Positions 4,497 to 20,172 of a DNA stretch of 20,193 bases are shown one piece after another (position 1 is the first letter of the stretch; every line of letters begins with the position of its first letter). The translations under genes were made by a program, and so were the position numbers. The notes under the pieces are model-generated. The model searched no databases. It was not told the DNA's origin and worked only from the letters and a program-made list of their open reading frames with translations. Source of the DNA: Candidatus Hydrogenedentota bacterium (GTDB lineage: Bacteria > Hydrogenedentota > Hydrogenedentia > Hydrogenedentales > SLHB01); NCBI GenBank assembly GCA_034408725.1, contig JAWXCN010000171.1:1-20193 (forward strand). The letters are read 5' to 3'.

Positions 4497-5569
4497 TCGA
4501 CGGTCTCGATGACGTTCACCCGCCCACCGGGGCGCGCGTCGCGTTGTCCGACAACGATAAGCCTGTCGCCTGTCTGCAACCCGCTGGTGATCTGCACATT
4601 ACTGGCTTGCACGACGCCGACCTCGACCGCGCGTAATTCCGCGACACCGTCTTTCTCGACGAACACGAATCGCTTGTCGTCTATCAACGCCGTCGCGAAT
4701 AACGGCGCCACAATGGACTCCGCAAAAGTCCTGCGCACCAACTGCGCCCGCGCAATCATGCCCGGCTTGAAACAACCGTCCGCATTGTCGAGCGCAATCT
4801 CGGTGCCAAACGTGTGCGTCACCGAATCCGCAGTCGGCGCTATCAAATGTATTACACCTGAGAACATGCGGTCCGCTATCGCGTCCAACGTCACGGCGAC
4901 AGTGTCCCCGGCTTTGAAATACGAAACGTCTCGTTCGGGGACGCCCACCCGCAACTTTACCCGGTCCACCTGCACGAGCCGGACCAGCGGATTCCCTACA
5001 TCGCTGAACTCATCCTGTTTGGAATAGAGTTCCGCCACCACGCCATCAAACGGCGCCTTCACAATGCTCTTGCGCAACAGAATTTCGGTCGCGCGAACTT
5101 CCGCGTCCGCAACATCCCTGCTCGCGACTGCGCTGTCCTGTTCCCGCACCGCGCTTACCCCGCGGTCAGCCAGTTTCCGCGCGCGATCGAATTCCTGTGT
5201 CGCCCATCGAGCCTGTGCTTCCGCCTGCTCGAATTTCGTCTGAAGCGCCTGCGTATCAATGCGGAAAAGGTCCTGGCCTTGTTTTACGAGGTCACCGGTT
5301 TCAATCGGACGCGCTTCTATCTTTCCACTGACTTCGGAACTCAGCGTGACGTTTTCCCATGCATCGATCGTGCCGGTAAGTGTAAAGCGGTCCTCGACGA
5401 CGCCCGCCGTCAGCACCTGCACTTTGACATTCGGAATCTGCGTTTCCGTTACGCCGTTCGCGCGCGCGGCTTCTTTCGCCGCAAACGCGCCTGCCGCCCA
5501 ATAGACTATCCCGCCGCAGACCGCGAGAATTCCGAAGCACATTCCCACCGATACCAGAAATTTTTTCAT
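4493..5569 (-). CDS. RND efflux periplasmic adaptor (membrane fusion protein)
   Basis: 358 aa, N-terminal anchor, lipoyl half-motifs (SEVSGKI...GDLVKQGQDLFRID; VKAPFDGVV), FKPGMIARA, GLQTGDRLIVVG. AGGAG RBS upstream; coupled to the permease. Confidence 0.96.
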   Translation of the reverse strand: MKKFLVSVGMCFGILAVCGGIVYWAAGAFAAKEAARANGVTETQIPNVKVQVLTAGVVEDRFTLTGTIDAWENVTLSSEVSGKIEARPIETGDLVKQGQDLFRIDTQALQTKFEQAEAQARWATQEFDRARKLADRGVSAVREQDSAVASRDVADAEVRATEILLRKSIVKAPFDGVVAELYSKQDEFSDVGNPLVRLVQVDRVKLRVGVPERDVSYFKAGDTVAVTLDAIADRMFSGVIHLIAPTADSVTHTFGTEIALDNADGCFKPGMIARAQLVRRTFAESIVAPLFATALIDDKRFVFVEKDGVAELRAVEVGVVQASNVQITSGLQTGDRLIVVGQRDARPGGRVNVIETVE

Positions 5570-5736
5570 ATGCGTCTCCTACTGCCACCGCTCCGCCCGG
5601 CGGGCGCCGTGATCGCCCCGGATAGTGGCTCGGTCCATTCCCGGCTGGGCTGGCGGCTACACACTGAAACTATCCAATGGTCAAACAGGAGCAATCGATC
5701 ACGAATCCTTGGCAAAAATCAGACGCATAATCCCAT

Positions 5737-5803
5737 CTTCAAAGTCCCCCGTTGAAGGGGGATCCTTCAAAGTCCCCCTTTGAAGGGGGATTTAGGGGGA
5801 TGT
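5737..5803. repeat. Tandem REP-like hairpin repeat, two 27-nt copies plus a partial TTAGGGGGAT tail
   Basis: CTTCAAAGTCCCCCGTTGAAGGGGGAT (5737-5763) and CTTCAAAGTCCCCCTTTGAAGGGGGAT (5765-5791), 28-nt period, 1 mismatch. Each copy folds TCCCCC/GGGGGA. Lies between TetR and the MFP gene. Confidence 0.8.
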
Positions 5804-5852
5804 AAGGTCTGATTTCCAAACTTCATATCGAACGAATCTCAAACTCGGGACA

Positions 5853-6476
5853 CTAGCGCGTGTGCGACGTCGCCCCCTCAATAAATAGATCAACAAGCGC
5901 CACGCCCAGTTCCCTTGGCAGGGTCGTGTGCGGGCGGTTGATCTTCACCATGATATGCATATCCATCATCCCGCAAAACGCCATCGCGAGCGTCTCCGGG
6001 TCCCGCCCCGTAAACGTCCCGGAAGCGACCCCTACCTCCATGATTTTGCGGATACGCGAATAGCGCGATTCCCACAAATTGTCCTTGTCCAATTTCGGGG
6101 TCTGATAACGCGGCGCGAAGAATGTATGAAATATGAGCCGCACAACCTGCGGCGATCGTTCGGCATGCTCGAAGATATTGATCACCACCGTCTCAAGCTG
6201 TTGCCGCAACCCCTCGACACCACTCAACGCCCGATCCATGTCCTCGACCAGCTCAATAAACCAAGATTCGACCAGCTTCCGGAACAGGTGCTCCTTGTTC
6301 TCGAAATAGTAGTACAGCACGGGCCGCGTAACACCGGCGCGCTCAATTATTTCGCGGATACTTGTCCCTTCATAGCCTTTCTCTGAAAACAGGCCAAGCG
6401 CGCTCGAAAGCAATCGTTTTTCCGCTTCGTTCGCGGTGCTCACGTCATCCGGTACTTTGGCTAACCGTGCAGGCAT
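5853..6476 (-). CDS. TetR/AcrR family transcriptional regulator
   Basis: HTH motif LLSSALGLFSEKGYEGTSIREIIERAGVTRPVLYYYFENKEHLF. Start moved from 6548 to ATG 6476 because GGAGA lies just upstream of it. Confidence 0.95.
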   Translation of the reverse strand: MPARLAKVPDDVSTANEAEKRLLSSALGLFSEKGYEGTSIREIIERAGVTRPVLYYYFENKEHLFRKLVESWFIELVEDMDRALSGVEGLRQQLETVVINIFEHAERSPQVVRLIFHTFFAPRYQTPKLDKDNLWESRYSRIRKIMEVGVASGTFTGRDPETLAMAFCGMMDMHIMVKINRPHTTLPRELGVALVDLFIEGATSHTR

Positions 6477-6486
6477 GTATTCTCCA

Positions 6487-6506
6487 ATAGACCGACCAGT
6501 CGATAT
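6487..6506. promoter_or_regulatory. Possible TetR operator just upstream of the tetR RBS
   Basis: ATAGACCGACCAGTCGATAT with palindromic core CGAC-CA-GTCG (6493-6502). Position is typical for TetR autoregulation. Confidence 0.4.
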
Positions 6507-6694
6507 ATAACCGGAGCCGATCATTTCCGCTGCAAATTCAATCCACATGAGTACGGCCGGTCACACCCCGCCGTACCTCCCTCATTAGTATAGACCAATC
6601 CCCCAACTGCTTTCATACTCGCACCGACTCGATATCAGCTCCGACATGCTTCCGCAATCGTCTTAATTTCCAAAGGTAGCTTGCCCATGAAGGG

Positions 6695-7006: not shown

Positions 7007-7090
7007 ATGTTCGGGCTGCTTCGTAATACGTCCCTCCTTCGCGCATTTACTTTCCTCAGCCCACGGACTACGACGTGCCCAACGGCATGA
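7007..7090 (+). pseudogene. Probable orphaned 5' end of the Rhs gene, out of frame with the Rhs body
   Basis: GGGGAG RBS 8 nt before ATG 7007; translates MFGLLRNTSLLRAFTFLSPRTTTCPTA*. It overlaps the point (~7063-7075) where YD-repeat sequence begins abruptly in another frame. Confidence 0.45.
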
Positions 7091-8967
7091 CCACGAATTA
7101 TACGTATGACACCAAAAACCGTCTCAGCGCCATCGAGCATAAGGATGGCGGGACGGTGCTCGACGGATTTACGTATGAGTTAGACGATTCCGGCAACATC
7201 ACGAAGACCACGCACGAGGACGGCTCGTATTGGGACTATGCCTACGACGACCGGTACCGGCTAATTGACGCGGACCGGTTCAGCGCGAGCGGAAACATCA
7301 AGGCCGCGTATGCGTACACGTATGACGACGGCGACAATATGCTCACCATAACCGAGCCGTTCTTCGATGACTTCAACGATGGCAACACCACTGGCTGGAC
7401 CACCAGCGGCACGTGGTCAGCGACGAACAACATGCTGGAGAGCACCGGCACGGGCGGGCCTATCGCGTCGCTTGCGAATACCGACAATAGCAACGAGATC
7501 ATGTTGCGCTACCGCATCAACGACACCTCGGACAGTCTAACCCGCGCGTACATCGATTTCCGGCACGTGGACTGGAACAACTACGAGTGGGTCCGCATCT
7601 TCCGGTCGAGCATTAACATCGGCAAAAACGTCAGCGGCGTGGGCACGCAAATCGCCTCCGGCAACGCAACCTCAACCGCAAACGTGTGGTACAACCTACG
7701 CATCGTCGCCGATGGCGCAAACGTAGACGTCTACCGCTGGGCCGACGGCGCCATGCCCACGCTCATTTGCTCCACCACCAGCAGCCCGAGTCTCTCCACC
7801 ACCACGTTCAAACTCAACGTCGTCTCCCCCTACCTCTACGATTTCGACGACATCCGCATCCTCGCCGATAGCCTCAGCAACACAACGACCTTCACCGTCA
7901 ACAACTCGAATGAGTTGGTGACGATGGTGGATTACAACGGCACCACCAATTTTACCTTTGATGATTGGGGACGAATGACGGAGAAGGAAAGGGTCGGCTC
8001 ATCTGCCACGTACTCCTGGAACTATGGTTACAATTTGACAAGTGTTTCTTCTAACTTCGCTGGAGAAGGCACAGTCGGATATGAGTTCGGCGGCGACCGG
8101 AAGCGCCGAGAGCGAGTATCCAGCGGTAACACTACTTGGTACAACTATGGTGGCTGGCTTGTTCTAAATGAGGAAGATGGCTCCGGTAACCTTTCCAAAA
8201 CCTATGACCATGACACGATGTGGCCTGTTGGCGCGGTCTTGGCTGATCTAGCTGGAGCTACGCCATCATCCGGAACGCCGCGTTTTTACGAGCGAGATAA
8301 TATTGGATCGACGCGCCGCCTTCGCGATTCGAGCAAGGCATCGCTCGGTCAATACGATTACGATCCATATGGAGTAGCTTACATTGCTACTGGCGCAACG
8401 ATTACGAACACGTTTACTGGGCACATCTGGGATAGTACCGCAAACCTTTATTGGGCTCCGTACCGCTTCTACAGCCCCGCCGAAGCTCGTTGGCTCAGCC
8501 GGGACTTGTTAATCAGCGATGGCCCGAATTTTTATGTTTACGCTCAGGACAGTCCAATTGTAAACAGCGACCCTTTCGGCTTGTGGACTTGGACTACAGA
8601 GCCAGGCCCACCTCCAAACATGAATACAATTGTGTGCGACGGCGTAGGAAGTATAGTACCTGTATTAAACGACGCCAAGGGAAATCTAAGCTGTGGAATA
8701 GGAGATTGTCTACGAGAGCACGAAAAAAGCCATGCGGAAGATGCTTTGAAGGCGGTCCCTGATATTTGTAAAGACAAAGAATACGGTACGTTGGTAGTTA
8801 ATTACAATCCGGAGGAACGAGCTGCATCCGAGCGAAAGGCCTGTGACAGAGAGACAGAGTGTCTGGATGATGAACTTAAAAAATATAAACCTGGTTCCGT
8901 GTGTGAAATCTTGATTAAAGACCGCATTCAGCGAGTGGGGACGTATCGTGATCAATTTGAGGATTAG
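7075..8967 (+). CDS. Rhs/YD-repeat protein (N-terminally truncated) with an inserted ConA/DUF1080-like domain, Rhs-associated core and C-terminal HEXXH toxin domain
   Basis: YD repeats (YTYDTKNRL, YAYDDRYRL, FTFDDWGRM). Core signature FTGHIWDSTANLYWAPYRFYSPAEARWLSRD...NFYVYAQDSPIVNSDPFGL (DPFGL at 8569-8583), then a 127-aa CT containing HEKSH. The frame is closed upstream by TAA at 7024 and begins mid-repeat. Confidence 0.92.
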   Translation: MPNGMTTNYTYDTKNRLSAIEHKDGGTVLDGFTYELDDSGNITKTTHEDGSYWDYAYDDRYRLIDADRFSASGNIKAAYAYTYDDGDNMLTITEPFFDDFNDGNTTGWTTSGTWSATNNMLESTGTGGPIASLANTDNSNEIMLRYRINDTSDSLTRAYIDFRHVDWNNYEWVRIFRSSINIGKNVSGVGTQIASGNATSTANVWYNLRIVADGANVDVYRWADGAMPTLICSTTSSPSLSTTTFKLNVVSPYLYDFDDIRILADSLSNTTTFTVNNSNELVTMVDYNGTTNFTFDDWGRMTEKERVGSSATYSWNYGYNLTSVSSNFAGEGTVGYEFGGDRKRRERVSSGNTTWYNYGGWLVLNEEDGSGNLSKTYDHDTMWPVGAVLADLAGATPSSGTPRFYERDNIGSTRRLRDSSKASLGQYDYDPYGVAYIATGATITNTFTGHIWDSTANLYWAPYRFYSPAEARWLSRDLLISDGPNFYVYAQDSPIVNSDPFGLWTWTTEPGPPPNMNTIVCDGVGSIVPVLNDAKGNLSCGIGDCLREHEKSHAEDALKAVPDICKDKEYGTLVVNYNPEERAASERKACDRETECLDDELKKYKPGSVCEILIKDRIQRVGTYRDQFED

Positions 8968-9502
8968 CAGAGATTTTTTGAGTCAAGGAATTGTGACGTT
9001 GCTAGCCATAATCGCGGTAGTGGCATTATTGTTTTCAGGAGTGGCTCCTGAGGCTTGGAGCGCCACGAATAGTGAAGGTGAGCTCCCTCCGATTTCCATG
9101 GAGGTTGAACTAGATCAAAGCACAGATGATTTACAGCTTAATGTCCGGTTGACCTCTAATCTGAAAGCCCCCGTCAAAACGTCGGAAAGCTTTCTGCCTT
9201 GGGGTAGCTGGTACAGCATGGTTCTGATTGGAGTCAAGGACAAAATCGATGGAGTAGTATTGAACAAGAAAGGGCAGCCGATTGACGACCCCAGCGCGGA
9301 TTCGGTCACCATTAAACCAGGCATACCGATAACCGGCAAGATCTCCTTAAGCAACCGGTTTGATGGCCTTGTCGAGGCTTTGGATGAATCAGATGTTATA
9401 ATATTTTGGTGTTATCGGCTATGGGTAGATGAAGATATTCCCGACACACGTGCGGGTGGATGGTTACTTATTCCGAAGCGCCAACACAAAACCGAAGCAT
9501 AA
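8948..9502 (+). CDS. Exported protein, probable cognate immunity protein of the Rhs C-terminal toxin
   Basis: Overlaps or directly follows the Rhs stop and has the same lower GC. Hydrophobic N-terminus (IVTLLAIIAVVALLFSGVAPEAWSA) and beta-rich body. Alternative start GTG 8993 with AAGGA upstream. Confidence 0.7.
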   Translation: MINLRISRDFLSQGIVTLLAIIAVVALLFSGVAPEAWSATNSEGELPPISMEVELDQSTDDLQLNVRLTSNLKAPVKTSESFLPWGSWYSMVLIGVKDKIDGVVLNKKGQPIDDPSADSVTIKPGIPITGKISLSNRFDGLVEALDESDVIIFWCYRLWVDEDIPDTRAGGWLLIPKRQHKTEA

Positions 9503-9643
9503 AAATACAAAAATTCTCACAAAGACCAAATCGGCGGGTTTATCAACGGCTCCACACCCACTTATTGAACTCCGCAAAGCGACATGTAGGTGCAAGTCGC
9601 GTTCTCGCAGTGCAACACCCCTCACGATGTATAACAGGAGAAT

Positions 9644-9664
9644 AATAGGGGACAGCACCCTATT
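9644..9664 (+). repeat. REP-like hairpin, copy 1 of the ATAGGGGACAGC family
   Basis: AATAGGG-GACAGCA-CCCTATT, 7-bp stem. Similar to the copies at 10657 and 13453. Confidence 0.75.
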
Positions 9665-9779
9665 AAATCCCGCAAACTTCGCATGGAATTTTTATGCACC
9701 GGGACTACGTTCAAGTGCAATTTTCCTTGTCGCAGTGCAACGCCGCCCCCACGGTGAATGGTCTCCAAGAAGTAGACCA

Positions 9780-10658
9780 AGCGAACTGGATCAGCACCGC
9801 GATGAATCGGGCAAGCCGGCGGGTTGCGCTATAATTACGATGCGAGTCGGCGTCTGGCAAGATCACGGATTGGGAATTGCAGGGACAGACTACGAATTGG
9901 AAATGGTGGAAGAAAACTGGGAAAGCCTATTTGTGCATCACGGACAAGATGGGCAATTCCGTCAATTTCCTCTTCGAGTACGCGCAAGACTCGGGTGGGA
10001 ATTGGGAAGCGAAGAAGGTCACGGTCACGGACGAGGCGGGCCTTGTCACGGTGTTTGACCGCAGCATCACTTCGGATGTCGCCACGGTGACGAACTGGGA
10101 CAGCACGACGCTGCTGTACAAAATGGTGTTCACGCCGAAAACCGGCTCAGTGCGGGAATCGGTTTCTATGACCATTACTTCGACGCGACGAACTACCAGC
10201 GCTGGTCGTTTGCCTACGACACCGCGGGTAACCTTACGCAGAACACAGGACCAAGCACGGCGGTGCTGTCGGAATATACCTATGACACCGGCAACCGCTT
10301 GACCGGCGCGCGCACGGGCGCGGGACCCTGGACCACGTTTGGCTATGCGGACGCAAACGCGGAGCATGCCAACACCATCACCGGCCCCGATGCCCTCGTC
10401 ACGACGGTGTATTACGATACGGACGGATTGATCTCGAAGGTGACGCATCCCTCAGTCGACGCGGACGGCACGCGCTGGGCCTATGACGGCAATGGCGTGG
10501 TCACGGCGGTGACGGACCCGTTAGACAATGTCACGGCGTATGAATACGACACCGTGGGCAACTTGACGTCGGTGACGGACCCGAACCTGAACGAAACGAT
10601 ATTTACCTACGACGATCTCGGCAACGTCACCTCCGTGACCGATCCGCGCGGGGCGTAA
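9780..10658 (+). pseudogene. Second Rhs/YD-repeat fragment with at least two frameshifts, truncated at both ends
   Basis: LRYNYDASRRL (frame of 9824) shifts near 9857 to KITDWELQ...ITDKMGN...VTVTDEAG (frame of 9877). It shifts again near 10148 to FYDHYFDATNYQRWSFAYDTAGNL...YEYDTVGNLTSVTDPNLNETIFTYDDLGNVTSVTDPRGA*. The left boundary is approximate. Confidence 0.85.
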
Positions 10659-10677
10659 ATAGGGGACAGCCACCTAT
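10657..10677 (+). repeat. REP-like hairpin, copy 2, directly upstream of the RAYT remnant
   Basis: AAATAGGGGACAGCCACCTAT. Its first bases form the TAA that ends the Rhs fragment. Confidence 0.8.
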
Positions 10678-10716
10678 GTATTGGCTTCTGGCGCGGCCTT
10701 CTGAATGTTGTCTCTC

Positions 10717-10904
10717 GTGTCACGGCACGCGCGAATCATCATACCCGGCCTGCCCCACCACATCACGCAGCGCGACGACTACCGTCGGGACGTTTTCTTT
10801 GTCGATGGTGACCGGGTCGCCTACTGGATTTGTTACGCGAGCAATGCCTGAAGCACCGCGTCCGCGTGCTGGGGTATTGCCTGATGACCAACCACATCCA
10901 CGCT
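10717..10904 (+). pseudogene. REP-associated tyrosine transposase (RAYT / Y1_Tnp, HUH) N-terminal remnant
   Basis: GTG 10717 gives MSRHARIIIPGLPHHITQRDDYRRDVFFVDGDRVAY. After a 1-nt shift at ~10825 it continues DLLREQCLKHRVRVLGYCLMTNHIHA. This matches the H(H)ITQRG and YCLMTNHxH motifs. Similarity ends right after the HUH motif, before the catalytic Tyr. Confidence 0.9.
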
Positions 10905-10919
10905 ATGAAAATACGCGGC

Positions 10920-12329
10920 TCACTTGTGCGTCGGCGGGGTGGGGATGGCGCTGGTCGTGCCGAATTTCTGACGGCCGCGCCAGTCCATTGGCTTGTTGGC
11001 GATCATCTGCCCGATGAGCGACAACGCGAACCACACGCGAAGTATGCCCGAGACGGGGTGAAGCCACGGCACCAAAGGGTGAAATTCCGCGATCTTTTCT
11101 ACGCCTTTGTATTCACGAGTTTCATCTACGTACAAAACGAATCCGGCCGCGGCGAGCAACGTCAGGAGCAGGTCGAAGCGGCCCGCGATCAATTGCGGGA
11201 GAATCCCCACGGCCATCATGGGCAGTGCCATGAGCGTTGTGCTGAGCCGCAAGGCCATCATGGTGAGCGGAAGCTGCAGATGGTCGCCAAAGAATATGCG
11301 GGTCTTGCGCAGCGTGTGTTTCTTGACCTCGCGATATCCGTGGTAGAACCGTACGCGGAGCAAATCCGGCGTCCAGGCGAATCCGACGCGGCCGCCGATG
11401 TGTTTCACCGCGGCGGCCATGAGAGTGTCCTCCGGGTGCCACTCGCCCAGGGCTTTGTGACCTCCGATGGCCCGATAGCAGCTGTGTTTAATGAGCATGA
11501 ATGCGCCGATGCCGATGGGGAACGATTGGGAATCGTTCAAATTTTCGTGATCGGCGCCTTGCAGAATCCCGCGCCAGCCCGTGGGTAAAAGAAACTGTTC
11601 GCCCCATGTTTTGGCGATCAATCGCGGCATGCAGGTGAGGAAATCAAGACGCTCGCGTTCGGCTTGGCTGATCGCTTGTTCCAGTATCCCGGGCTCGAAC
11701 ACCACATCGGCATCCGCGAACAGCAACCAGCCTTCATCGCGAACTGCAGGTTCAGGTTGCTTGCCCTCGATTTGCAGGACGGCCTGCCAAAGGGCATTGG
11801 ACTTGCCGAACCATCCTTCCTCGAAGGGAGGGTCATGCAATACATGCACACGCGGGAAATCGCGTTTGATCGCATCCAGAATGTGGGGCGTTTTGTCGGT
11901 GGAATGATCGTTGATGAACCACACGTCGAGATTGGGATAAGACAAAGACGCTACGGAACGCGCGGCTTCCTCCAGATTGTCCTCCTCGTTGCGGGCGGGG
12001 ACTATCACGGTGACTTTCGGCCGCGTTTTTGGGGAAGTAGCGGACGCAGCAGCGCGAGAAAAACACGGTAGCGTGGCCAGGTTGCGGCGAAACTTTTTGT
12101 GGCGCTCACCTCGCTTCCATACCAGAACGGCTACGTACACCCACACGGCGGCGAGCGTCACGGGGTTGGGTTTGGCGCACGCGACAATCAACAGGATGAA
12201 GACGACCCACCACAGCACGGCTACTGCCGAATTGGGGGTTGGACGAAGGCCACGGGCCAATGCGCCTACATCAATGGAAGGACGCACCGCTTCGACCTCA
12301 TGTTGTTGGCGAGAAGACTCGTCGACCAT
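10920..12329 (-). CDS. Membrane-bound family 2 glycosyltransferase (HpnB/CrtQ-like)
   Basis: VTVIVPARNEE, INDHSTDKT, GWFGKSNAL, LLFADADV (DxD), IGAFMLI...YRAIGGH, ED motif. N- and C-terminal TM helices. Confidence 0.93.
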   Translation of the reverse strand: MVDESSRQQHEVEAVRPSIDVGALARGLRPTPNSAVAVLWWVVFILLIVACAKPNPVTLAAVWVYVAVLVWKRGERHKKFRRNLATLPCFSRAAASATSPKTRPKVTVIVPARNEEDNLEEAARSVASLSYPNLDVWFINDHSTDKTPHILDAIKRDFPRVHVLHDPPFEEGWFGKSNALWQAVLQIEGKQPEPAVRDEGWLLFADADVVFEPGILEQAISQAERERLDFLTCMPRLIAKTWGEQFLLPTGWRGILQGADHENLNDSQSFPIGIGAFMLIKHSCYRAIGGHKALGEWHPEDTLMAAAVKHIGGRVGFAWTPDLLRVRFYHGYREVKKHTLRKTRIFFGDHLQLPLTMMALRLSTTLMALPMMAVGILPQLIAGRFDLLLTLLAAAGFVLYVDETREYKGVEKIAEFHPLVPWLHPVSGILRVWFALSLIGQMIANKPMDWRGRQKFGTTSAIPTPPTHK

Positions 12330-12354
12330 CGCCGATCGACCGCCCGGTTCGCCG

Positions 12355-12471
12355 TTACAACGTCATGGTGGTGTTTACGGGCGGTTTTTTGTCGCCCTTG
12401 AAGGCCTTGAGCAGTTTGACCTGAGCCAACTGGGGGTGTTTCATTTTACCTATCAACCGAATGTGTTTCAC
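12355..12471 (-). CDS. 38-aa basic peptide MKHIRLIGKMKHPQLAQVKLLKAFKGDKKPPVNTTMTL (absent from the ORF track)
   Basis: GTG at 12471 with GAGGTG RBS 8 nt upstream (12480-12485) and TAA at 12355-12357. Lies downstream of a near-consensus promoter and ends 25 nt before the GT2 ATG. Confidence 0.75.
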   Translation of the reverse strand: MKHIRLIGKMKHPQLAQVKLLKAFKGDKKPPVNTTMTL

Positions 12472-12537
12472 GTTCTGAGCACCTCAATTTGTTAATCGGT
12501 GACGATGAAACAATGTCTGGCGACTTACGAAAAATTG

Positions 12538-12566
12538 ACTCTAACAGGTAAGGCGACCCCTGTCAA
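12538..12566 (-). promoter_or_regulatory. Sigma70 promoter of the peptide-GT2 operon
   Basis: TTGACA (12566-12561), 17-nt spacer ending in TG-n, TAGAGT (12543-12538). Confidence 0.75.
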
Positions 12567-12630
12567 CGACCGTCGGATGCCAACACTAGTTTGCGGGAAA
12601 GAACAATTGCCGTGAAGTCATCCGCATGAA

Positions 12631-13347
12631 CTATTTCAAATTCTCGCGCTTGGCCGCCCAGCGGATTGCCTGGGCGATAAAGCGCTTGTAATTCTCATCC
12701 GCGAAAATCTCCCCGCCGTGACCGGGCGCTATGACAACAACGCGCGAATCCTTGTACTGCGTTGTCCACGCCACTATATCGTCGCTTTCCCCGTTACTGC
12801 TCACGAGAATTGGTATTGCCGTATCTGGACGGTACACGTACTTGTAAGGCTCTTCAACGACGCGGATCTCTTGAACACCCTGCGTAATTGGATGATTCGG
12901 GTCGGCAGGGCGATAGGTCATTTCAACATTCGGAGTGTATTCGCTTTTGCGATGACCGTCGCGCGGTTCGAAGAAGAACTGACCACCAGCGATTTCTCGG
13001 TATTTGGGCCACGCGGGGTGGTTACAAAGCGCATGATGGAGGACAATGAGTCCGCGGCCTTTTCCAAACGCATTTGCGAATTCGATTTTTTGTTCTTCGG
13101 AAATGTTCATTTCAAAATCATAGAGCAGAACGACGTCGTATTCCTTCGCGAATTCCCTGGTATACGCGGCGCAAGGCTTGTTCGTTTGCGTTTTCTTGTC
13201 CCACTCAATCTCGTTGAGTCCCTCGAAGAGCCCGTAGAACCGCGGGTCAAAGCCGTGACTGCCAGTGATAACAAGTAGCCGAATCGGTGATTCGTCTGCA
13301 CATGCGAACAGACCAGAGCAGATCGCGGTAAGATACAGCAATTTCAT
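12631..13347 (-). CDS. ThuA-like (class I glutamine amidotransferase-like fold) protein, probable lipoprotein
   Basis: LLVITGSHGF, YDVVLLYD, GRGLIVLHHA, HPITQGV...EEPY, VAWT...SRVVVIAPGH...AIRWAA. N-terminus MKLLYLTAICSGLFAC is lipobox-like. AGGGAG RBS. Confidence 0.88.
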   Translation of the reverse strand: MKLLYLTAICSGLFACADESPIRLLVITGSHGFDPRFYGLFEGLNEIEWDKKTQTNKPCAAYTREFAKEYDVVLLYDFEMNISEEQKIEFANAFGKGRGLIVLHHALCNHPAWPKYREIAGGQFFFEPRDGHRKSEYTPNVEMTYRPADPNHPITQGVQEIRVVEEPYKYVYRPDTAIPILVSSNGESDDIVAWTTQYKDSRVVVIAPGHGGEIFADENYKRFIAQAIRWAAKRENLK

Positions 13348-13481: not shown

Positions 13482-14597
13482 TCAGTTCCACGTTTTATTC
13501 AATTGCGCGAGCGCGTAGCTGGCGCTGCGTCCGCCTTCCGGGTTGCGAACGAGAATGGCGCGTTCGACGAGCAGCAGAATGTCCCGGAGCGCTGTGTCCT
13601 GGGAGCACTTGGCGAGCTTGGCGTATTTAGATGTGGTGAGTTTTCCCTCGAAGCCGTCAAGCAGGCGATTGAGCACCAGGCGCTGACGGTCATTAAGCTG
13701 CACGCTTTGAATGCGCTGCCAAAAGCGCGCCTTGGCGAGGACGGCGCTGAGCGCGGTTTGTGCTTCATCAATGGCGCGGCCTAAGCATCCGACGAACCAG
13801 TCCATCCATAACGAGATGTCCATAGTTCCCGTCTGCGTCCGCTCCAGAATATCGTAATAGGCGTTCCGCTCCTGCCGGATCTGCGCCGACATGCTGTAAA
13901 ATCGCTGCGGGCTATTTTCCGACCGCGCGAGGGCCATGTCGGCGATGGCGCGCGCTATGCGGCCGTTGCCGTCGTCGAACGGGTGAATGGTTACAAACCA
14001 GAGATGGGCCAGCCCGGCTTTCAACACGGGATCAATGCCAGCACCTTTCTCGAACCAGTGCAGGAATACGCTCATTTCAGCGTCGAGTCGTTGCGCCTTC
14101 GGCGCTTCGAAATGGATATGCTCCTTTCCGACTGGGCCGGAAATGACCTGCATCGGTCCTGTGTTGTCGTCACGCCAGACCCCTGCCCGAATCTTCGTCA
14201 TGCCACTGCGCCCGGTGGGAAACAGGGACGCATGCCAAGCAAAAAATCTTTCGGCGGTGAGCGGGTGGTCATAGTGGCGCGTGGCGTCAAGCATCATCTC
14301 AACGACGCCCTCGACGTCGCGATCCATCGGCTTAAGAGCACCGATATCTATCCCGAGACGACGCGCAATCGACGACCGAACCTGTTCCGCGTCAAGCAGT
14401 TCTCCTTCGATCTCGCTGCTCTTGAGTACGTCGGCAGTGAGCGTTTGCAATAGGGCTTCTTGGCGCAAGTTGAATCCAAGCGCTTCCATGCGGCCGATCA
14501 ACCGGCCCTGACGGTGGCGGACAGCGGCCAGAGGTTCGGCTAGACTTTCTCGGTTCCACTGAAACCGGGGCCAGTCCATAAGTTCATGGATATACAT
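13482..14597 (-). CDS. Fic family protein with DUF4172-type N-terminus and C-terminal winged HTH
   Basis: Canonical Fic motif HPFDDGNGRIAR; YIHELMDWPRFQW and KSSEIEGE in the N-terminus; C-terminal TTSKYAKLAKCSQDTALRDI. ATG 14597 has AGGAG 9 nt upstream (the track start 14606 is the alternative). Confidence 0.95.
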   Translation of the reverse strand: MYIHELMDWPRFQWNRESLAEPLAAVRHRQGRLIGRMEALGFNLRQEALLQTLTADVLKSSEIEGELLDAEQVRSSIARRLGIDIGALKPMDRDVEGVVEMMLDATRHYDHPLTAERFFAWHASLFPTGRSGMTKIRAGVWRDDNTGPMQVISGPVGKEHIHFEAPKAQRLDAEMSVFLHWFEKGAGIDPVLKAGLAHLWFVTIHPFDDGNGRIARAIADMALARSENSPQRFYSMSAQIRQERNAYYDILERTQTGTMDISLWMDWFVGCLGRAIDEAQTALSAVLAKARFWQRIQSVQLNDRQRLVLNRLLDGFEGKLTTSKYAKLAKCSQDTALRDILLLVERAILVRNPEGGRSASYALAQLNKTWN

Positions 14598-14671
14598 TCT
14601 CCGCATCTCCTGCGGACATTATAACTCATTTTCACCGCAAGGCAATATTCACCGCACAAAGCGCGGCGAAT
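14596..14671 (-). promoter_or_regulatory. fic promoter with two palindromic operators and a half-site
   Basis: TTGCCT-N16-TATAAT on the minus strand (14645-14618). Palindromes ATTCTCCGCA-N5-TGCGGACAT (14596-14619) and ATTCACCGCA-N5-CGCGGCGAAT (14647-14671); half-site TTCACCGCA at 14631. Confidence 0.7.
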
Positions 14672-14734: not shown

Positions 14735-15595
14735 TCACGACACTCGTCCTTCCGCGCCAAGATACTTTCCCGGAACGCGGGTCATCGGATACTCGCCGAA
14801 CTCCTCCGCGCGTTCGATGCACTCCGGAATTGCGCCTTCCCACCAACTGGGCACGCTCGGCCATGGAAAGACGCCATGCCATTGCAGCAGTAACGTTCTC
14901 CGGTGATCCGTTGTGTTGGCATGCGCCGCGTGCAACAGCCGCGCATCATTGATCACGAGGTCACCCGCTTTGACCGGGAGATCAATCGCTTCGGGATGGT
15001 CCGCGAATACGGGGTGCGACGTTTCCAGCGCCTGGATTTCAGGGCCATGCGCCGGCGGCAAGATATCGTGCAAGGGTAGACGGCACCGATGGCTGCCGGG
15101 AATCGCGCGCAGACACCCATTCTCGACCGTTGTATCGACAAGGTAGTAGGACAGAAAAACCCGCGTCGGCCACGGAAGTCCCGCTTTGGGATGGTCCCAC
15201 TCCATAAAATCCTGGTGCCAATACAGTGCGGGGCCGTGCGCCGGCTTGCTGAGGATTAAAACCGTATCATCGGCTTCTGCGCCCTCAAAGCCGAGCAAGC
15301 GATACGCCTCGCGGGCCGCCGATAAATCCACCAATTCGTCCACCAGCGGCGACCACAACCCCTGGTCAGGCCGATGCAAGTCGTCCCGCTCGTACCGCCG
15401 CCGCGAATTGACGTGGAAATCACTGCCCTGATACTTCGTATCAGGATTCAACGGCACGCGATCCAACACGGCGTCGCTATACGCTACCCACCGTTCCAAC
15501 AGCGATCCGTGCAGCACGCCGGGCACGATGCAAAACCCATCGCCGACCAACTGCTTTCGCTTTGCCATTGCGGCTTCTGGAGAGAGCACAGTCAT
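14735..15595 (-). CDS. Phytanoyl-CoA dioxygenase (PhyH) family Fe(II)/2-oxoglutarate oxygenase
   Basis: DGFCIVPGV, LYWHQD (HxD), TVENGCLRAIPGSH, VKAGDLVI...LLHAAHANTTDHRR. Start moved to ATG 15595, which has AAGGAG 6 nt upstream. Confidence 0.93.
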   Translation of the reverse strand: MTVLSPEAAMAKRKQLVGDGFCIVPGVLHGSLLERWVAYSDAVLDRVPLNPDTKYQGSDFHVNSRRRYERDDLHRPDQGLWSPLVDELVDLSAAREAYRLLGFEGAEADDTVLILSKPAHGPALYWHQDFMEWDHPKAGLPWPTRVFLSYYLVDTTVENGCLRAIPGSHRCRLPLHDILPPAHGPEIQALETSHPVFADHPEAIDLPVKAGDLVINDARLLHAAHANTTDHRRTLLLQWHGVFPWPSVPSWWEGAIPECIERAEEFGEYPMTRVPGKYLGAEGRVS

Positions 15596-15933
15596 CAATG
15601 ACTCCTTCATCGGACAATGGTACGGATGCGGGAACACTCTGGCAAACAAACCTGTTCTTTACAGTAACGGTGTCTGGGATGTAAAGTATTAACGGTGCGG
15701 GGTAATTTCCAAAGTCTTGACGTATTCGCAGTATTCGTTTTTTGACCATTTATTTGTCAAAACTGACTAATACTACGCAATAATGACGGTTGTTTTTCGT
15801 GCTTCACGATTCTCATTCGCTATAAACAGGTGCAGGGTGACGATTTATAAAATGCGACATTTGCTGGCACGGTCCTTGATGTTATTCCTGTCATGGGACG
15901 TGACGGCTCCCAAATCGAAAATCGCGGGGTCAA

Positions 15934-18900
15934 ATGTCGCGTTATAATCGACATATAGGGTCAAGTGCCCTAACCATTTGTGGCATAATCTTTTATGCCT
16001 CGTCCAGTTACGCCCTGACCGCTGGATTATCACTCTCCATGCCCATCCTCGAAGGCCTACGTGCGCACAACCCGTACCCGCCAGGCTTTCAGGAGTCTAC
16101 TATCTATCAAGGCTCTTACCTGCCTACGGCGATTCGTTTCGCACCGGACGGACGCTATTTTGTCGCCGAAAAATATGGACGTGTGCTGGCTTTCGACAGC
16201 GTAAATGATTCCACGTTTACTATAGTGCACGAGTTTGGCGCTCCCGTCTGGACGTTTCATGATCACGGATTACTCGGGATGGCGGTTGATCCCGAATTCC
16301 CGGTCCGCCCCTATCTCTACGTGTCATACACCATGCGCGGAAAGCCGGGCGGCCGTCTGTCCCGGATTCAGATCAACCCCGCCACAAACCAGAAAGTGGG
16401 CAACGAGCTCGTCATCCTTGAGGGATGGTGCGCGGTCTATCCCAGTCATTCCATGGGTGACTTGCACTTTGGGCCGGACGGCTCGTTGTACATGACCTAT
16501 GGCGACGGCGCGAGTTTCAGCTTTCTCGATTGGGGCCAGGATGAACCCTATAACTCTGACAACAGCCCCGCCGGACCCTGCGGTTGCAACGACCCCGCAC
16601 TCGAGGGCGGCGCGCTGCGCAGCCAGGATTTCCGCACCACCGGCGACGCGCTTCAATTCAACGGCGCATTGATTCGCATTAATCCGGATACCGGCGAAGC
16701 AATGCCGGACAATCCGCTTATTGGTGGTAATCCCGCCGACGATCGCATGCTCGCCTATGGGTTCCGCAATCCTTTCCGGTTCACAATTCATCCCGTAACG
16801 GGAGACGTATTCGTTTGTGATGTCGGCTGGAATTCGTGGGAAGAGATCAACCGCGTCGAAACTCCGCTAATCGGACCCATTCCCAATTTCGGATGGCCGT
16901 GCTACGAAGGTCCCGGCCCGCAGCCGGGATACTCGGGCGCGAATTTGCCGATCTGCACGGCCCTATACAACGATGGCTCCGTGACAGCTCCGTTCTACGC
17001 CTATCAACATAACAACGGCAGTTCGGCCACCGGCGCCGCCGTGTACATGGGCGGCGAATATCCGGCCGAATATGAAGGCGCGCTGTTTTGGGGAGACTAT
17101 TCCAAAGCCACCATCAAAGCGATGTTGCCGGATGTCAACGGAAACCCCGATCCCAACAACGTTATCACCTTCGCAGATTCGGAGGTCCACCCCGTCGATC
17201 TTCAGGTTGGCCCCAACGGCGATTTATTCTATATCGATATCAGTGCCGGCGCGGTCAGGCGCATTCAGTATTTTCAAACCAACCATCCGCCCGTCGCGGC
17301 CGTGGAATCCGATCTGACGAGCGGTCCGTCCCCGTTGACGGTCCAGTTTAGCGGCGCGCAGTCGCACGATGACGACCCTGGGGATGTCATAACTTTCGAG
17401 TGGGACTTCGACAACGACGGCGATTTCTCCGATTCAACGGACATCGAACCCGCCATCTCATTCCCTTCCATCGGCAATTATCCCGTCAGCCTGAAGGTCA
17501 CTGATCTCGAAGGTCTTTTCGACATTGACACCATCCTTATCGCAGTGGACAACGGCCCGCCCGTCGCCACAATCCTCGAACCGCTCTCGTCGTTGACCTG
17601 GCGCGTCGGCGATGTTATTGACTTTGACGGTGAAGGCAATGATCCCGATTCCGGCGCGATGGACCCCGAAACATTCATGTGGGAATTAATTCTGCTGCAT
17701 TGCGCAACGCCCGCACTCGAAGATTGCCACGAGCATACAATCAACACCATCTTCGGCGAATCCACGGGGACCTTTACCGCCGTCGAACACGAATGGCCCA
17801 CGTATCTTCGTATACGGCTTACCACAACCGAGCCTGAAGCCTCTGGGCTTTCAGACACGGATTCCGTGTTGCTCGAACCGGAAACAGTCACTATTTCCCT
17901 CGCAACACAACCTCCGGGACTCCAGACCTCGATTTACGCGGCGAGCAACCCTTCGCCGTGGAGCAGGACTGCAATCATCAACGACATCACAACCATCACC
18001 GCGGGAACGCCTCAGATTCAAGGCGACATAAAATATTCGTTTGCATCCTGGTCCGACAGCGGTCTCTCCGCGCACAACATCCATATTCCGGACACCGACA
18101 CGACCTACACCGCAACGTATAGCGCGAACAACCGGCCCGTTCTCGCGCCAATAGGCAACAAGAACGTCAACGAGGGCCAGTCGCTTCAATTTATAGTATC
18201 GGGAACAGACACCGATGGCGCGCCGCCAACATTCTCGATGTCCAACGGCCCAGCGACCGCAACCCTCACCAATCACGGAAACGGCACAGCGACATTTTTG
18301 TGGCAAACGGACTACGAAGATCAGGGCACGCTTGCCAACGTAACATTCGCCGCCCGCGACGCCAATGACGCCACATGGACCGACACCGAAGTGATCGCCG
18401 TAACTGTCGGCAATGTGAACCCCCCGCCGGTCCTTGCCGCGATCGGCAACAAATCAGTCAATGAAAACGCGCTGTTGCAATTCTTGATCTCCGCGTCGGA
18501 TACCGACGGCACGACCCCCACGCTATCGGCAACAAACCTGCCCGCGGGCGCGTCCGTCAACAACAATGGCGACGGCACTGCTTCGTTCTCCTGGACGCCG
18601 GATTTCACTGATGCCGGCCCGCACTCCGTCACGTTTACCGCAACCGACACTGGCGCTCCGCCGCTCACCGATTCCGAAACGGTCACGATTACCGTAAACA
18701 ACGTCAATCGACCGCCGGTACTCGTAGACATTCCAAACAAAACAGTCGATGAAAACGCCTTGCTCCAGTTTACCGTTAACGCCAGCGATCCGGACGGCAC
18801 ATCTCCATCGCTGAACGCCTCGAACCTGCCCACCGGCGCGACATTCGTCAATCACGGCAACGGCACCGCGACATTTGCCTGGACGCCGAATTACTCTAAG

Positions 18901-20172
18901 GCCGGGGTCTACGCCAATATATCCGTCACTGCGTCTGACGGCGGTACTCCCGTTCTGACCGATAGCGATACGTTCTCCATCGCCGTGAATGACGTGAACC
19001 GCGCGCCTGTTGTGGGTTCTATCACCGACAAGACAGTCGACGAGAATGAAATCCTGCAGGTCAATGTGTCCGCGGTCGATCCGGATGGACCGACGCCCGG
19101 CCTCAGCGCATCAAATCTTCCGCAAGGCGCGACGTTTGCAGATAATGGTAACGGCACGGGCACCTTCGTCTGGCAAACCAACTACGAAGATGCTGGCCTT
19201 CATTCCGGCATAACCATCACCGCGGTGGATGCCCTGGATTCGGCATTGACCCACCAGGTCTCGTTCTCCGTCACTGTCGAACCCGTGAATCGCAAGCCGG
19301 TCCTCGCCAACATTCTCAACATCACCGCAACAGAAAATGAGCTTATCGAGTTCGTTGTCACCGCGACCGATCCGGATGGCAATCCGGTTACGCTCGCCGC
19401 TACGAATCTTCCCGCCGGCGGGACCTTCACTGACGGCGGTAATGGCGCCGGTACGTTTTCCTGGCAAACGGCCCATGACGCATCCAACGGTTCTCCGTAC
19501 ACCGTTGGATTCACTGCGAGCGATGGCGTTGATTCGGACGTCGATTCCTGCGTGATTACGATCAATAACGTCAATCTGCCTGTCACGCTCGATCCCATCG
19601 GAAACAAGTCTGCCGTCGAAGGCGAATTGCTGGCGTTTAACGTCACGGGTTCTGATCCCGATGGCGCGCTCGACATCGTCGCCAGCAATCTGCCACTTGG
19701 CGCGGCCGTCATCACTGTACAAAACGGGACTATCGCATTCAATTGGATTCCAGACTATGCCGCTGCGGACAATTCTCCCTATAGCGTGACGTTCACCGCA
19801 ACGGATGGCGACACGCAACAAGCCGAAACGATCGAAATTTCAGTTGCGGACGCCGATGCGCCAGGCACGATTTCGGTTGTTCGTCCAAAAACTGGAACGG
19901 ATTACGTCCCCGGCTCGGACAATATCAAAATCAAATGGTCCACCACGGGCGAAGTTGGAGAAAAAATCATCATCGAGTTGTGGCGTAAAGGCGCATTCGT
20001 AAACAAGGTTAAAACCACAAAGAACGACGGCAAATTGGGCTGGGACGTTCCGCTCAACACGCCCACCGGCAACGGCTACACGATTCGCATTCGCTCGAAG
20101 AGCAACCCATTGATCGTAGGCGAGAGCACCGGTACATTTAAGATATCCAAAGCTAAACAGTCCCGAAAATAA
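15934..20172 (+). CDS. Large secreted protein: GSDH/PQQ-dependent sugar dehydrogenase-like beta-propeller, PKD domain(s), six Ig/cadherin-like repeats and a C-terminal beta-sandwich
   Basis: Signal peptide ending SSSYA. Propeller motifs PTAIRFAPDGRYFVAEK, DHGLLGMAVDPEF, HSMGDLHFGPDG, AYGFRNPFRF, DVGWNSWEEIN, NFGWPCYEG. PKD motif SGPSPLTVQFSG...FEWDFDNDG. Repeats start N(R/P)xPVL..IxNK.V.E. Confidence 0.93.
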   Translation: MSRYNRHIGSSALTICGIIFYASSSYALTAGLSLSMPILEGLRAHNPYPPGFQESTIYQGSYLPTAIRFAPDGRYFVAEKYGRVLAFDSVNDSTFTIVHEFGAPVWTFHDHGLLGMAVDPEFPVRPYLYVSYTMRGKPGGRLSRIQINPATNQKVGNELVILEGWCAVYPSHSMGDLHFGPDGSLYMTYGDGASFSFLDWGQDEPYNSDNSPAGPCGCNDPALEGGALRSQDFRTTGDALQFNGALIRINPDTGEAMPDNPLIGGNPADDRMLAYGFRNPFRFTIHPVTGDVFVCDVGWNSWEEINRVETPLIGPIPNFGWPCYEGPGPQPGYSGANLPICTALYNDGSVTAPFYAYQHNNGSSATGAAVYMGGEYPAEYEGALFWGDYSKATIKAMLPDVNGNPDPNNVITFADSEVHPVDLQVGPNGDLFYIDISAGAVRRIQYFQTNHPPVAAVESDLTSGPSPLTVQFSGAQSHDDDPGDVITFEWDFDNDGDFSDSTDIEPAISFPSIGNYPVSLKVTDLEGLFDIDTILIAVDNGPPVATILEPLSSLTWRVGDVIDFDGEGNDPDSGAMDPETFMWELILLHCATPALEDCHEHTINTIFGESTGTFTAVEHEWPTYLRIRLTTTEPEASGLSDTDSVLLEPETVTISLATQPPGLQTSIYAASNPSPWSRTAIINDITTITAGTPQIQGDIKYSFASWSDSGLSAHNIHIPDTDTTYTATYSANNRPVLAPIGNKNVNEGQSLQFIVSGTDTDGAPPTFSMSNGPATATLTNHGNGTATFLWQTDYEDQGTLANVTFAARDANDATWTDTEVIAVTVGNVNPPPVLAAIGNKSVNENALLQFLISASDTDGTTPTLSATNLPAGASVNNNGDGTASFSWTPDFTDAGPHSVTFTATDTGAPPLTDSETVTITVNNVNRPPVLVDIPNKTVDENALLQFTVNASDPDGTSPSLNASNLPTGATFVNHGNGTATFAWTPNYSKAGVYANISVTASDGGTPVLTDSDTFSIAVNDVNRAPVVGSITDKTVDENEILQVNVSAVDPDGPTPGLSASNLPQGATFADNGNGTGTFVWQTNYEDAGLHSGITITAVDALDSALTHQVSFSVTVEPVNRKPVLANILNITATENELIEFVVTATDPDGNPVTLAATNLPAGGTFTDGGNGAGTFSWQTAHDASNGSPYTVGFTASDGVDSDVDSCVITINNVNLPVTLDPIGNKSAVEGELLAFNVTGSDPDGALDIVASNLPLGAAVITVQNGTIAFNWIPDYAAADNSPYSVTFTATDGDTQQAETIEISVADADAPGTISVVRPKTGTDYVPGSDNIKIKWSTTGEVGEKIIIELWRKGAFVNKVKTTKNDGKLGWDVPLNTPTGNGYTIRIRSKSNPLIVGESTGTFKISKAKQSRK
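18127..19850 (+). repeat. Six tandem ~95-aa Ig-like repeats within the large protein
   Basis: Units start NRPVLAPIGNK, NPPPVLAAIGNK, NRPPVLVDIPNK, NRAPVVGSITDK, NRKPVLANILNI and NLPVTLDPIGNK. Most share D.DG...NLP.GA....GNGT.TF.W. The end coordinate is approximate. Confidence 0.85.

Follow-up and report, generated by a model that had tools for sequence, protein, structure and literature searches.

In a 20,193-nt stretch of DNA from a Candidatus Hydrogenedentota bacterium (GenBank assembly GCA_034408725.1, contig JAWXCN010000171.1, positions 1 to 20,193; hereafter the window), we analysed a small open reading frame (ORF) on the minus strand that directly precedes a gene for a family-2 glycosyltransferase (GT2). 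Sequence comparison across related genomes indicates that this ORF is a real, conserved peptide gene, that peptide and GT2 form an obligate two-gene module, paired in every testable case, and that the N-terminal ~16 residues of the peptide belong to a phylum-wide leader-like family, referred to here by its first three residues, MKH. What is new, as judged from the sequences compared, is a subfamily that is tied to a membrane GT2, carries an invariant Asn-x-Thr in its tail and is limited to one family of the phylum. As the best explanation we tentatively propose a leader-plus-core peptide whose companion membrane GT2 glycosylates its C-terminal motif. Literature searches, judged at the level of search results and not of full texts, returned nothing on the peptide, the pairing or the MKH leader.

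The peptide gene comprises 38 codons (12355..12471; minus strand, as are all features of the unit), with a GTG start at 12471 and a TAA stop at 12357-12355, and was assigned from the ORF together with the family evidence described below. A Shine-Dalgarno (SD)-like GAGGTG (12480..12485) lies 8 nt 5' of the start codon. Further upstream, a promoter scan in which both hexamers were scored jointly detected a -35-like TTGACA (12561..12566) and a -10-like TAGAGT (12538..12543) separated by a 17-nt spacer, with a TG just 5' of the -10-like hexamer and a 5' leader of ~55 nt between that hexamer and GAGGTG. On the other side, a 25-nt spacer without an SD-like motif (12330..12354) separates the peptide stop from the ATG (12329) of the GT2 gene (10920..12329), which encodes a polytopic membrane family-2 glycosyltransferase of 469 aa resembling HpnB and CruG. 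No terminator-like site was detected by the terminator scan on the minus strand between the two genes. The gene upstream of the unit is ThuA-like and RHS-repeat fragments on the opposite strand converge on GT2 from downstream, so that the unit consists of two genes. The initial annotation of this DNA, made from the letters alone, had described a hidden 38-aa peptide gene heading a two-gene unit with GT2, and the promoter-like site, ribosome-binding site, ORF and 25-nt gap were all found where it had placed them, with the ORF giving the same translation.

A search of 41 related genomes with GT2 identified orthologues at 66-73% identity, and the small ORF lay immediately 5' of all full-length ones (4/4); it was missing from the 8 loci of a GT2 paralogue with 37-43% identity. 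A profile of the peptide matched 11 of the 54 genomes of the family (E values of 2e-22 to 3e-11), and a wider profile search returned the same 11 among 135 Hydrogenedentota genomes, with none in the 81 genomes of 14 other families. The gene is scattered patchily over 4 genera of a single family, and the genomes compared are related, so that counts across them are not independent. In all 11 genomes start and stop are intact; ATG, GTG or TTG is used at the same codon, with an SD-like motif before each. Across 36 codon columns, the mean pairwise difference at the three codon positions was 0.30, 0.28 and 0.56. The ratio of nonsynonymous to synonymous differences (pN/pS) was 0.41, compared with 1.12 and 1.08 in the shifted frames of the same alignment, and pN was lower than pS in 55/55 pairs. 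One Ser column alternates between TCG and AGC codons, every indel consists of whole codons, and the other two frames of the ORF are full of stop codons. Because the frame is conserved in 11 genomes of 4 genera and the substitution pattern is that of coding sequence, we conclude from the alignment that the ORF is a gene, and its conservation, which had been put forward as a check along with the initial annotation, was borne out.

Searching 1.84 billion representative proteins with the profile gave 14 matches at E <= 0.001. Of these, 12 have 34-39 residues and give full-length alignments, and the remaining two are long proteins matched via repeated partial stretches. The 10 database clusters whose names were looked up carry either no name or 'hypothetical protein'. 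Comparison of the peptide with Pfam and NCBIfam gave no family match, and the ESM Atlas gave no usable match for the search made. The window or part of it occurs in 11 DNA sequencing runs (8 labelled as microbial mat and 3 as soil, with small shares), and no RNA run containing it was listed. The shortness of the ORF, the lack of a Pfam or NCBIfam match and the lack of RNA data would fit a chance ORF in an intergenic leader that is not a gene at all, but such a frame would not be expected to stay intact in 11 genomes of 4 genera with a coding pattern absent from the other two frames, and gene callers predicted 12 database clusters of such peptides. Conservation, intact starts and coding signature together refute this explanation, and we attach practically no probability to it.

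The anatomy of the peptide family was derived from 22 sequences of 34-39 residues. Residues M1, K2, H3, K9, K28, N33 and T35 are invariant in 22/22 sequences, and K29 and P31 are nearly so. The design consists of a conserved N-terminal nonamer, mostly followed by P-x-x-A at positions 13-16, then a linker that varies in sequence and length, and a conserved tail, KK-x-P-x-N-x-T-[MKL]-[TS]-[LIM], that is the C-terminal end of the protein. In the window's copy, the leader-like part would span codons 1-16 (MKH...P-x-x-A; 12424..12471), a boundary placed by alignment of the MKH small ORFs, and the core part would span codons 17-38 (12358..12423), made up of the variable linker and the C-terminal module. 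Within the tail the [TS] position is always Thr or Ser, and the last residue is always Leu, Ile or Met (22/22). The invariant Asn-x-Thr (codons 33-35; 12367..12375) is an N-x-S/T sequon in all 22 sequences, where x is A, T, V or G and never Pro. Known bacterial Asn-glycosylating enzymes belong to other families, and as a sequence feature the Asn-x-Thr motif alone does not establish glycosylation. The peptides are strongly basic, with a predicted isoelectric point (pI) of 10.1-11.5 and 6-10 Lys+Arg per 34-39 residues, and Cys is absent from 22/22, consistent with the Cys-free peptide first described. The second MKH that had also been pointed out (residues 10-12) is confined to the window's copy and is no conserved feature. 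A polyproline stall as the conserved element was likewise rejected, since the first Pro of the pair varies (P/F/I/L/E) and the second is Ala in one sequence.

The pairing of the two genes was followed across the same family. An orthologous GT2 (>=60% identity) is present in 13 of the 54 genomes, and in 10/10 genomes where the 5' end of GT2 lies on the contig the peptide ORF is located 10-32 nt upstream; in three genomes (G069, G052 and G054) the GT2 match starts at a contig edge, and these are outside the pairing count. Orthologous GT2 genes thus kept the upstream peptide in every case where this could be checked, a check that had been proposed with the initial annotation. Named genome and metagenome records supplied another 12 loci, many of which represent the same populations, and in 11 of the 12 the peptide is followed by GT2. 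The twelfth, without GT2, is the same short contig as that of genome G048, in which the peptide lies 95 bp from the contig end. These counts cover the searched genomes and the named records, with 10 database peptide clusters lying outside them. Each genome examined has different flanking genes (cohesin-domain, Laminin_G_3, cyclase, GH127, HDOD and GFO/IDH/MocA genes; ThuA and RHS in the window). Pairwise identities of peptide and GT2 correlate loosely (r = 0.53, 36 pairs). A predicted complex of peptide and GT2 scored 0.01 against a mark of 0.32, and carries no weight either way.

Two observations on individual copies of the pair should be mentioned. The metagenome contigs L079 and L080, from other records, carry both peptide and GT2, the latter with 100% protein identity; their peptide segments are 97% identical only because the GTG start is read as V, so that the same population has been assembled more than once. 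In a genus-mate (G002:C91:7995-9338, the same as L005, L033 and L053), the orthologous GT2 match contains one in-frame TAG, which might reflect a sequencing error, a gene that is broken or an effect of the alignment edge.

The enzyme is a clear member of Pfam Glycos_transf_2 (E 1.3e-21, 77.7 bits compared with a cut-off of 23.3). Its matches to more specific families are full-length and weak: the HpnB model TIGR03469 covers GT2 residues 77-423 with 108.8 bits (cut-off 379.25), and the CruG model NF045692 covers residues 96-454 with 97.2 bits (cut-off 600). GT2 resembles HpnB, CruG and ceramide glucosyltransferase in having a GT-A core with N- and C-terminal membrane helices, but it scores far under the family cut-offs, and a search of this 92%-complete genome for a hopene cyclase gave none. 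The genome does encode one phytoene/squalene-synthase homologue. Among these glycosyltransferase families we know of none described with a coupled upstream peptide gene, although the literature was not searched on this point. The structural model of GT2 (predicted local distance difference test (pLDDT) 84.3, predicted template modelling score (pTM) 0.82) contains a short helix at residues 21-28, membrane helices at 34-52 and 56-86, the GT-A core and helices from 332 to 443. The short helix falls within a clade-specific N-terminal motif (residues 19-30; 12240..12275) that is conserved in 9 peptide-linked orthologues and absent from a same-genome paralogue of 40% identity, which aligns only from residue 38 on. 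Based on a basic stretch after the second membrane helix of the model, we infer that the N-terminal helix and the catalytic domain are both on the cytoplasmic side, where the peptide is made. The caveat originally attached to GT2, that it is a membrane-bound HpnB-like enzyme, therefore holds.

The expression signals of the unit were compared among the related loci. An SD-like motif precedes the peptide ORF in 10/10 loci checked and the GT2 start in 1/10, and the gaps between the two genes in relatives are ~10-32 nt. We rejected the missing SD at GT2 as proof of translational coupling, because starts without one are common in this genome: 26-46% of its long ORFs have an SD-like motif, and 74% of first starts are without one. 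A frameshift fusion of peptide and GT2 was also rejected, as the relative frames in the loci are 1,1,1,0,1,1,1,2,1,1 and the last part of the peptide ORF contains a stop in the GT2 frame. The TTGACA/TAGAGT pair reached 10/12 consensus matches with TG before the -10. Two promoter-like sites were found in 2.6 kb, compared with 1.1 +/- 1.0 in shuffled sequence, so that the count is not beyond chance. Of three relatives scanned, one had a promoter-like site at the scan threshold, at a different distance from the gene, and the genus-mates have by eye a weaker TAnAGT at the same relative place, under that threshold. The strong promoter of its own that had been ascribed to the peptide gene is therefore not supported as a conserved feature. 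Across 10 loci, neither the junction nor the 5' leader showed a common RNA fold (z-scores -6.0 to +1.2), and Rfam gave no family above threshold for 11800-13000, where a match to Hrs13 was rejected (E 0.22, 17.4 bits compared with a gathering score of 52).

The peptide profile search also gave weak matches, limited to the N-terminus, on other small ORFs that share the motif M-K-H-[IVLT]-[RK]-x-[IVL]-x-[KR]...P-x-x-A. In the window's genome, the motif of the first nine residues had 12 matches among 133,966 six-frame segments, compared with 1 for the reversed motif. Ten of the 12, including the window's, are SD-preceded ORFs of 30-72 aa, with three tandem pairs. A leader model built from the 9 other ORFs ranked the window's peptide 12 of 133,966. 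Applied to 1238 segments of related loci, the same model recovered all 11 GT-linked peptides (E 7e-6 to 0.05); the best other segment had an E value of 0.23, setting aside four MKH-type ORFs of L043-L046. With an 18-position leader model, 71 of the phylum's 135 genomes (46 of 66 genera) gave 179 matches in total, and those listed fall mostly in short open frames. These results support the assignment of the N-terminal part of the peptide to a phylum-wide leader-like family. They also agree with the initial annotation on two points: the search that it proposed, for small ORFs with the same leader and different cores, came out in its favour, and so did its unverified statement that MKHI(R/K)...P-x-x-A leader peptides occur in Hydrogenedentota.

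Elsewhere in the genome are genes that might handle such leaders. The end of contig C7 (L062 10829-12020, plus strand) carries two GNAT genes next to two MKH ORFs, and the start of contig C124 (L076, 248-4867, plus strand) carries genes for a CPBP protease, an ATP-binding cassette (ABC) ATPase, an ABC-2 permease and an ORF of 695 aa. The two contig ends probably join into one cassette, although this joining is our own proposal. The 695-aa ORF aligns with the radical S-adenosylmethionine (SAM) peptide maturase CteB (5WGG_A residues 6-439; E 2e-17) and scores 73.7 bits on the maturase model TIGR03974 (cut-off 425). The stretch matching the N-terminal region of CteB, its RRE domain, is well kept, and non-Cys residues occupy the positions of CteB's CxxxCxxC radical-SAM motif. 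According to a study on CteB, the RRE peptide-binding domain is located in the N-terminal region of the enzyme, and CteB binds the 18-residue CteA leader as a beta-strand on this domain (PMC6231123). By homology, the genome thus encodes a CteB-like protein, which we term the docking protein, and also has genes for GNAT enzymes, a CPBP protease and an ABC exporter.

The nine further MKH-leader ORFs of the window's genome (30-72 aa, SD-preceded) have unrelated cores. They are located at L064:6342-6440 and 6468-6560 and L062:9845-10042 and 10106-10252 (all plus strand), L063:8720-8887 and 8407-8601 (minus), L065:8593-8733 (plus), L066:8529-8726 (minus) and L067:9025-9243 (minus). These cores fall into Lys/Pro-rich, Trp-rich and acidic types and a hydrophobic, Gly-rich type that shares a G-x-x-A-A-x-G-A-Y stretch. 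The ORF at L067, flanked by an OprO/P-type porin gene and an operon for a sulfate ABC transporter, encodes a 72-aa protein that includes a hydrophobic stretch; the C-terminus of this protein (D-K-K...P-P-V) resembles D-K-K-P-P-V of the window's peptide. The MKH peptide on contig C150 (L065:8593-8820, plus strand) has a conserved acidic, Lys-rich core with a single Cys, and 10 of the family's 54 genomes encode it. Inspection by eye shows a GC-rich hairpin plus T-run after this ORF; next comes a Glyco_trans_1_2-domain gene, the latter only in the window's genus. C150 was considered as a second pair of MKH peptide and glycosyltransferase and was rejected, since the GT1-like neighbour is found only in three window-genus loci (a rough count) and the terminator-like hairpin stands between the two genes.

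The remainder of the window holds genes of other kinds. On the plus strand, 7075-11017 is a run of RHS-repeat ORF fragments (7075-8967 and 10263-10658 match RHS) and unassigned ORFs; the last of these (10676-11017) overlaps the 3' end of GT2 by ~100 nt, and the run looks like a broken or much diverged RHS locus. The other genes are a DUF4172-Fic protein (13482-14606, minus), a PhyH-family dioxygenase (14735-15649, minus), a 1412-aa surface-type protein with GSDH, PKD and Big_9 domains (15934-20172, plus), and a TetR regulator with an HlyD-type adaptor and an AcrB-type pump (1359-6548, minus).

The unit was compared with known peptide systems. Its resemblance to SCIFF peptides (ranthipeptides) lies in the docking protein, a clear homologue of CteB with a well-kept alignment in the RRE region, and the leader system is a descendant of that of SCIFF. 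The initial annotation adds that SCIFF precursors start similarly, with MKHIK. The SCIFF core, however, is Cys-rich (six Cys in ~45 residues), whereas the peptides here have no Cys. The SCIFF precursor model TIGR03973 (cut-off 50 bits) matched none of 5 peptides at E values up to 10, and no MKH ORF in the whole genome. There is also no active radical-SAM/SPASM maturase adjacent, the best TIGR03974 match being the 695-aa ORF, on another contig and without CxxxCxxC. With no Cys in the peptide and no CxxxCxxC in the docking protein, thioether chemistry would not be possible. Glycocins such as sublancin and glycocin F are ribosomal peptides glycosylated by an adjacent GT2, a soluble SunS-family enzyme. 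The likeness to them is a small ribosomal peptide gene beside a GT2 gene, with Thr/Ser-type acceptors in a conserved part of the peptide. They differ in that the GT2 here is polytopic and HpnB/CruG-like, with 11.5 bits on the SunS peptide S-glycosyltransferase model TIGR04195 (cut-off 350) over a generic N-terminal GT2 segment only. They also differ in that there is no Cys for a disulfide staple, and no exporter or peptidase adjoins the unit, whose neighbours are the ThuA-like gene and RHS fragments. The initial annotation had raised membership of either group, which the lack of Cys and of model matches argues against; its remark that no peptidase or exporter is adjacent was correct.

Among other MKH-leader small peptides, the closest in kind, the N-terminal motif, the SD-preceded small ORF, the lack of Cys and the cassette in the same genome are shared. 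In contrast to them, the GT-linked peptides have Gly or Ala at position 8 instead of Ser, lie away from the cassette, have a membrane GT2 of their own and a conserved core with the invariant Asn-x-Thr, and are limited to 4 genera of one family. In the prochlorosin/ProcM system, scattered sets of precursors are served by one maturase. Here too there are many small ORFs with one leader and different cores, spread away from a single processing set, but the leader and the chemistry are different, and cores are conserved across genera within each subfamily and not hypervariable. The closest functional parallel to the peptide-GT2 unit is the glycocin logic of a leader-plus-core ribosomal peptide served by its own tailoring enzyme.

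In the mechanism that we tentatively favor, translation of the peptide would start in the cytoplasm at a strong ribosome-binding site of its own, after which ribosomes would move on to the GT2 start 25 nt downstream. GT2 would put a sugar on the C-terminal module, at Thr/Ser or at the Asn of N-x-T. The leader would be read by the CteB relative without the radical-SAM Cys motif, and GNAT acetyltransferases, the CPBP-family membrane protease and the ABC exporter would take over further processing and export of the peptide. All of this is proposed, from the glycosylation and its acceptor residue to the removal of the leader and the export step. We prefer glycosylation because it alone explains both conserved ends, the shared tag and the GT-specific tail with its sugar-acceptor residues. 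A number of findings weigh against it. GT2 has the look of an enzyme directed at lipids or polymers: its best family matches are HpnB and CruG, and the SunS model picks up only a generic segment. The solved chain with the longest-covering sequence match is ceramide glucosyltransferase (E 9e-6), and the best structural matches are hyaluronan synthase, cellulose synthase BcsA, PcManGT, GtrB and DPMS (TM-scores 0.3-0.5). GT2 keeps the same membrane helices as its peptide-less paralogue, as would be expected if its lipid acceptor were unchanged. The peptide gene has no protease, exporter or docking gene next to it. Against the independent leader model, the window's peptide alone has a weak E value of 1.2, and position 8 of the leader is Gly/Ala in the GT-linked peptides and Ser in the 9 other MKH ORFs, so that the peptide may not be read by the same docking protein. 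Finally, the other MKH ORFs lie in very mixed contexts (the porin/sulfate transporter interval, after an extracytoplasmic function (ECF) sigma/anti-sigma pair, beside phosphoenolpyruvate (PEP) carboxykinase), which would also fit small accessory proteins and not natural products. A more specific version, which we hold to be unlikely, is that the lipid-type membrane GT2 glycosylates the Asn-x-Thr/Thr-Ser module, maybe after GNAT acylation of an invariant Lys that anchors the peptide in the membrane. If true, this would define a new glyco(lipo)peptide class and the first peptide-acting member of this enzyme group, in a pathway descended from SCIFF maturation from which the radical chemistry has been lost.

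Many of the same findings can be read as those of a small partner or regulator of a lipid glycosyltransferase. The peptide would then bind the cytoplasmic face of GT2, for example at its N-terminal helix, without being modified itself, and switch or tune the glycosylation of a membrane lipid (carotenoid-type or other), being made in step with GT2. Consistent with this, the two genes co-occur in every testable case at a gap of 10-32 nt, 9/10 GT2 starts have no SD-like motif, and GT2 is membrane-embedded and HpnB/CruG-like; a partner role fits this lipid-type fold and the mixed contexts of other MKH ORFs better than glycosylation of the peptide does. The peptide-linked clade has gained a conserved cytoplasmic N-terminal motif lacking in the paralogue, other MKH ORFs sit inside operons of unrelated function as expected of accessory proteins, and the genome has its phytoene/squalene-synthase homologue. 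A partner role leaves unexplained, however, why the N-terminal tag is common to many unrelated small ORFs, why two MKH ORFs adjoin part of the processing and export cassette, and why Asn and Thr, classic sugar acceptors, are the invariant residues of the module; and with first starts lacking an SD so common (74%), coupling is not demonstrated. We regard a partner role as the main rival, though somewhat doubtful. We give still less credence to a purely cis-acting upstream ORF, which would load ribosomes for reinitiation at the SD-less GT2 start, or gate it through the nascent chain, and whose released peptide would be functionless. It has been put forward that bacteria in general make use of reinitiation downstream of short leader genes (PMC4833913), and the contrast in SD-like motifs between peptide and GT2 starts (10/10 compared with 1/10), the gaps of 10-32 nt, the conservation of both peptide ends and a length held to 34-39 residues would all suit it. 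But the N-terminal motif is also found on stand-alone ORFs of 30-72 aa, at least one with a terminator-like hairpin, and no coupled gene, after it. The 10 loci share no common RNA fold and no Rfam family reached threshold, the Pro-Pro pair is not invariant, so that a polyproline stall is not the conserved feature, and SD-less starts are common here (54-74% of long ORFs).

An exported cationic peptide of the antimicrobial type, its leader removed by the MKH cassette and with GT2 as an immunity gene that alters the cell's own membrane lipids, seems improbable to us as well. In bacteriocin/immunity pairs the structural gene is directly followed by that of a membrane protein, and this usual layout is found here. 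The pI of 10.1-11.5, the 6-10 Lys+Arg in 34-39 residues and the link of the leader family to a protease and ABC exporter elsewhere in the genome point in the same direction. However, the part that is conserved is the C-terminal tail with its Asn and Thr, while the amphipathic middle is variable both in how long it is and in its residues. The distribution over 4 genera, patchy yet vertical-looking, is neutral on this question.

Overall, small genes like this one are overlooked or left unnamed, and through its leader the peptide is linked to a gene set for peptide handling that occurs across the phylum, derives from a radical-SAM maturase and appears undescribed. If GT2 modifies the peptide, the enzymes acting on ribosomal peptides would extend to membrane GT2s of the lipid type; if the peptide controls GT2, it would be a rare soluble micro-protein regulating lipid glycosylation. 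With two genes and three candidate acceptor residues the question is directly testable, and the module offers a handle on a phylum without a cultured model.

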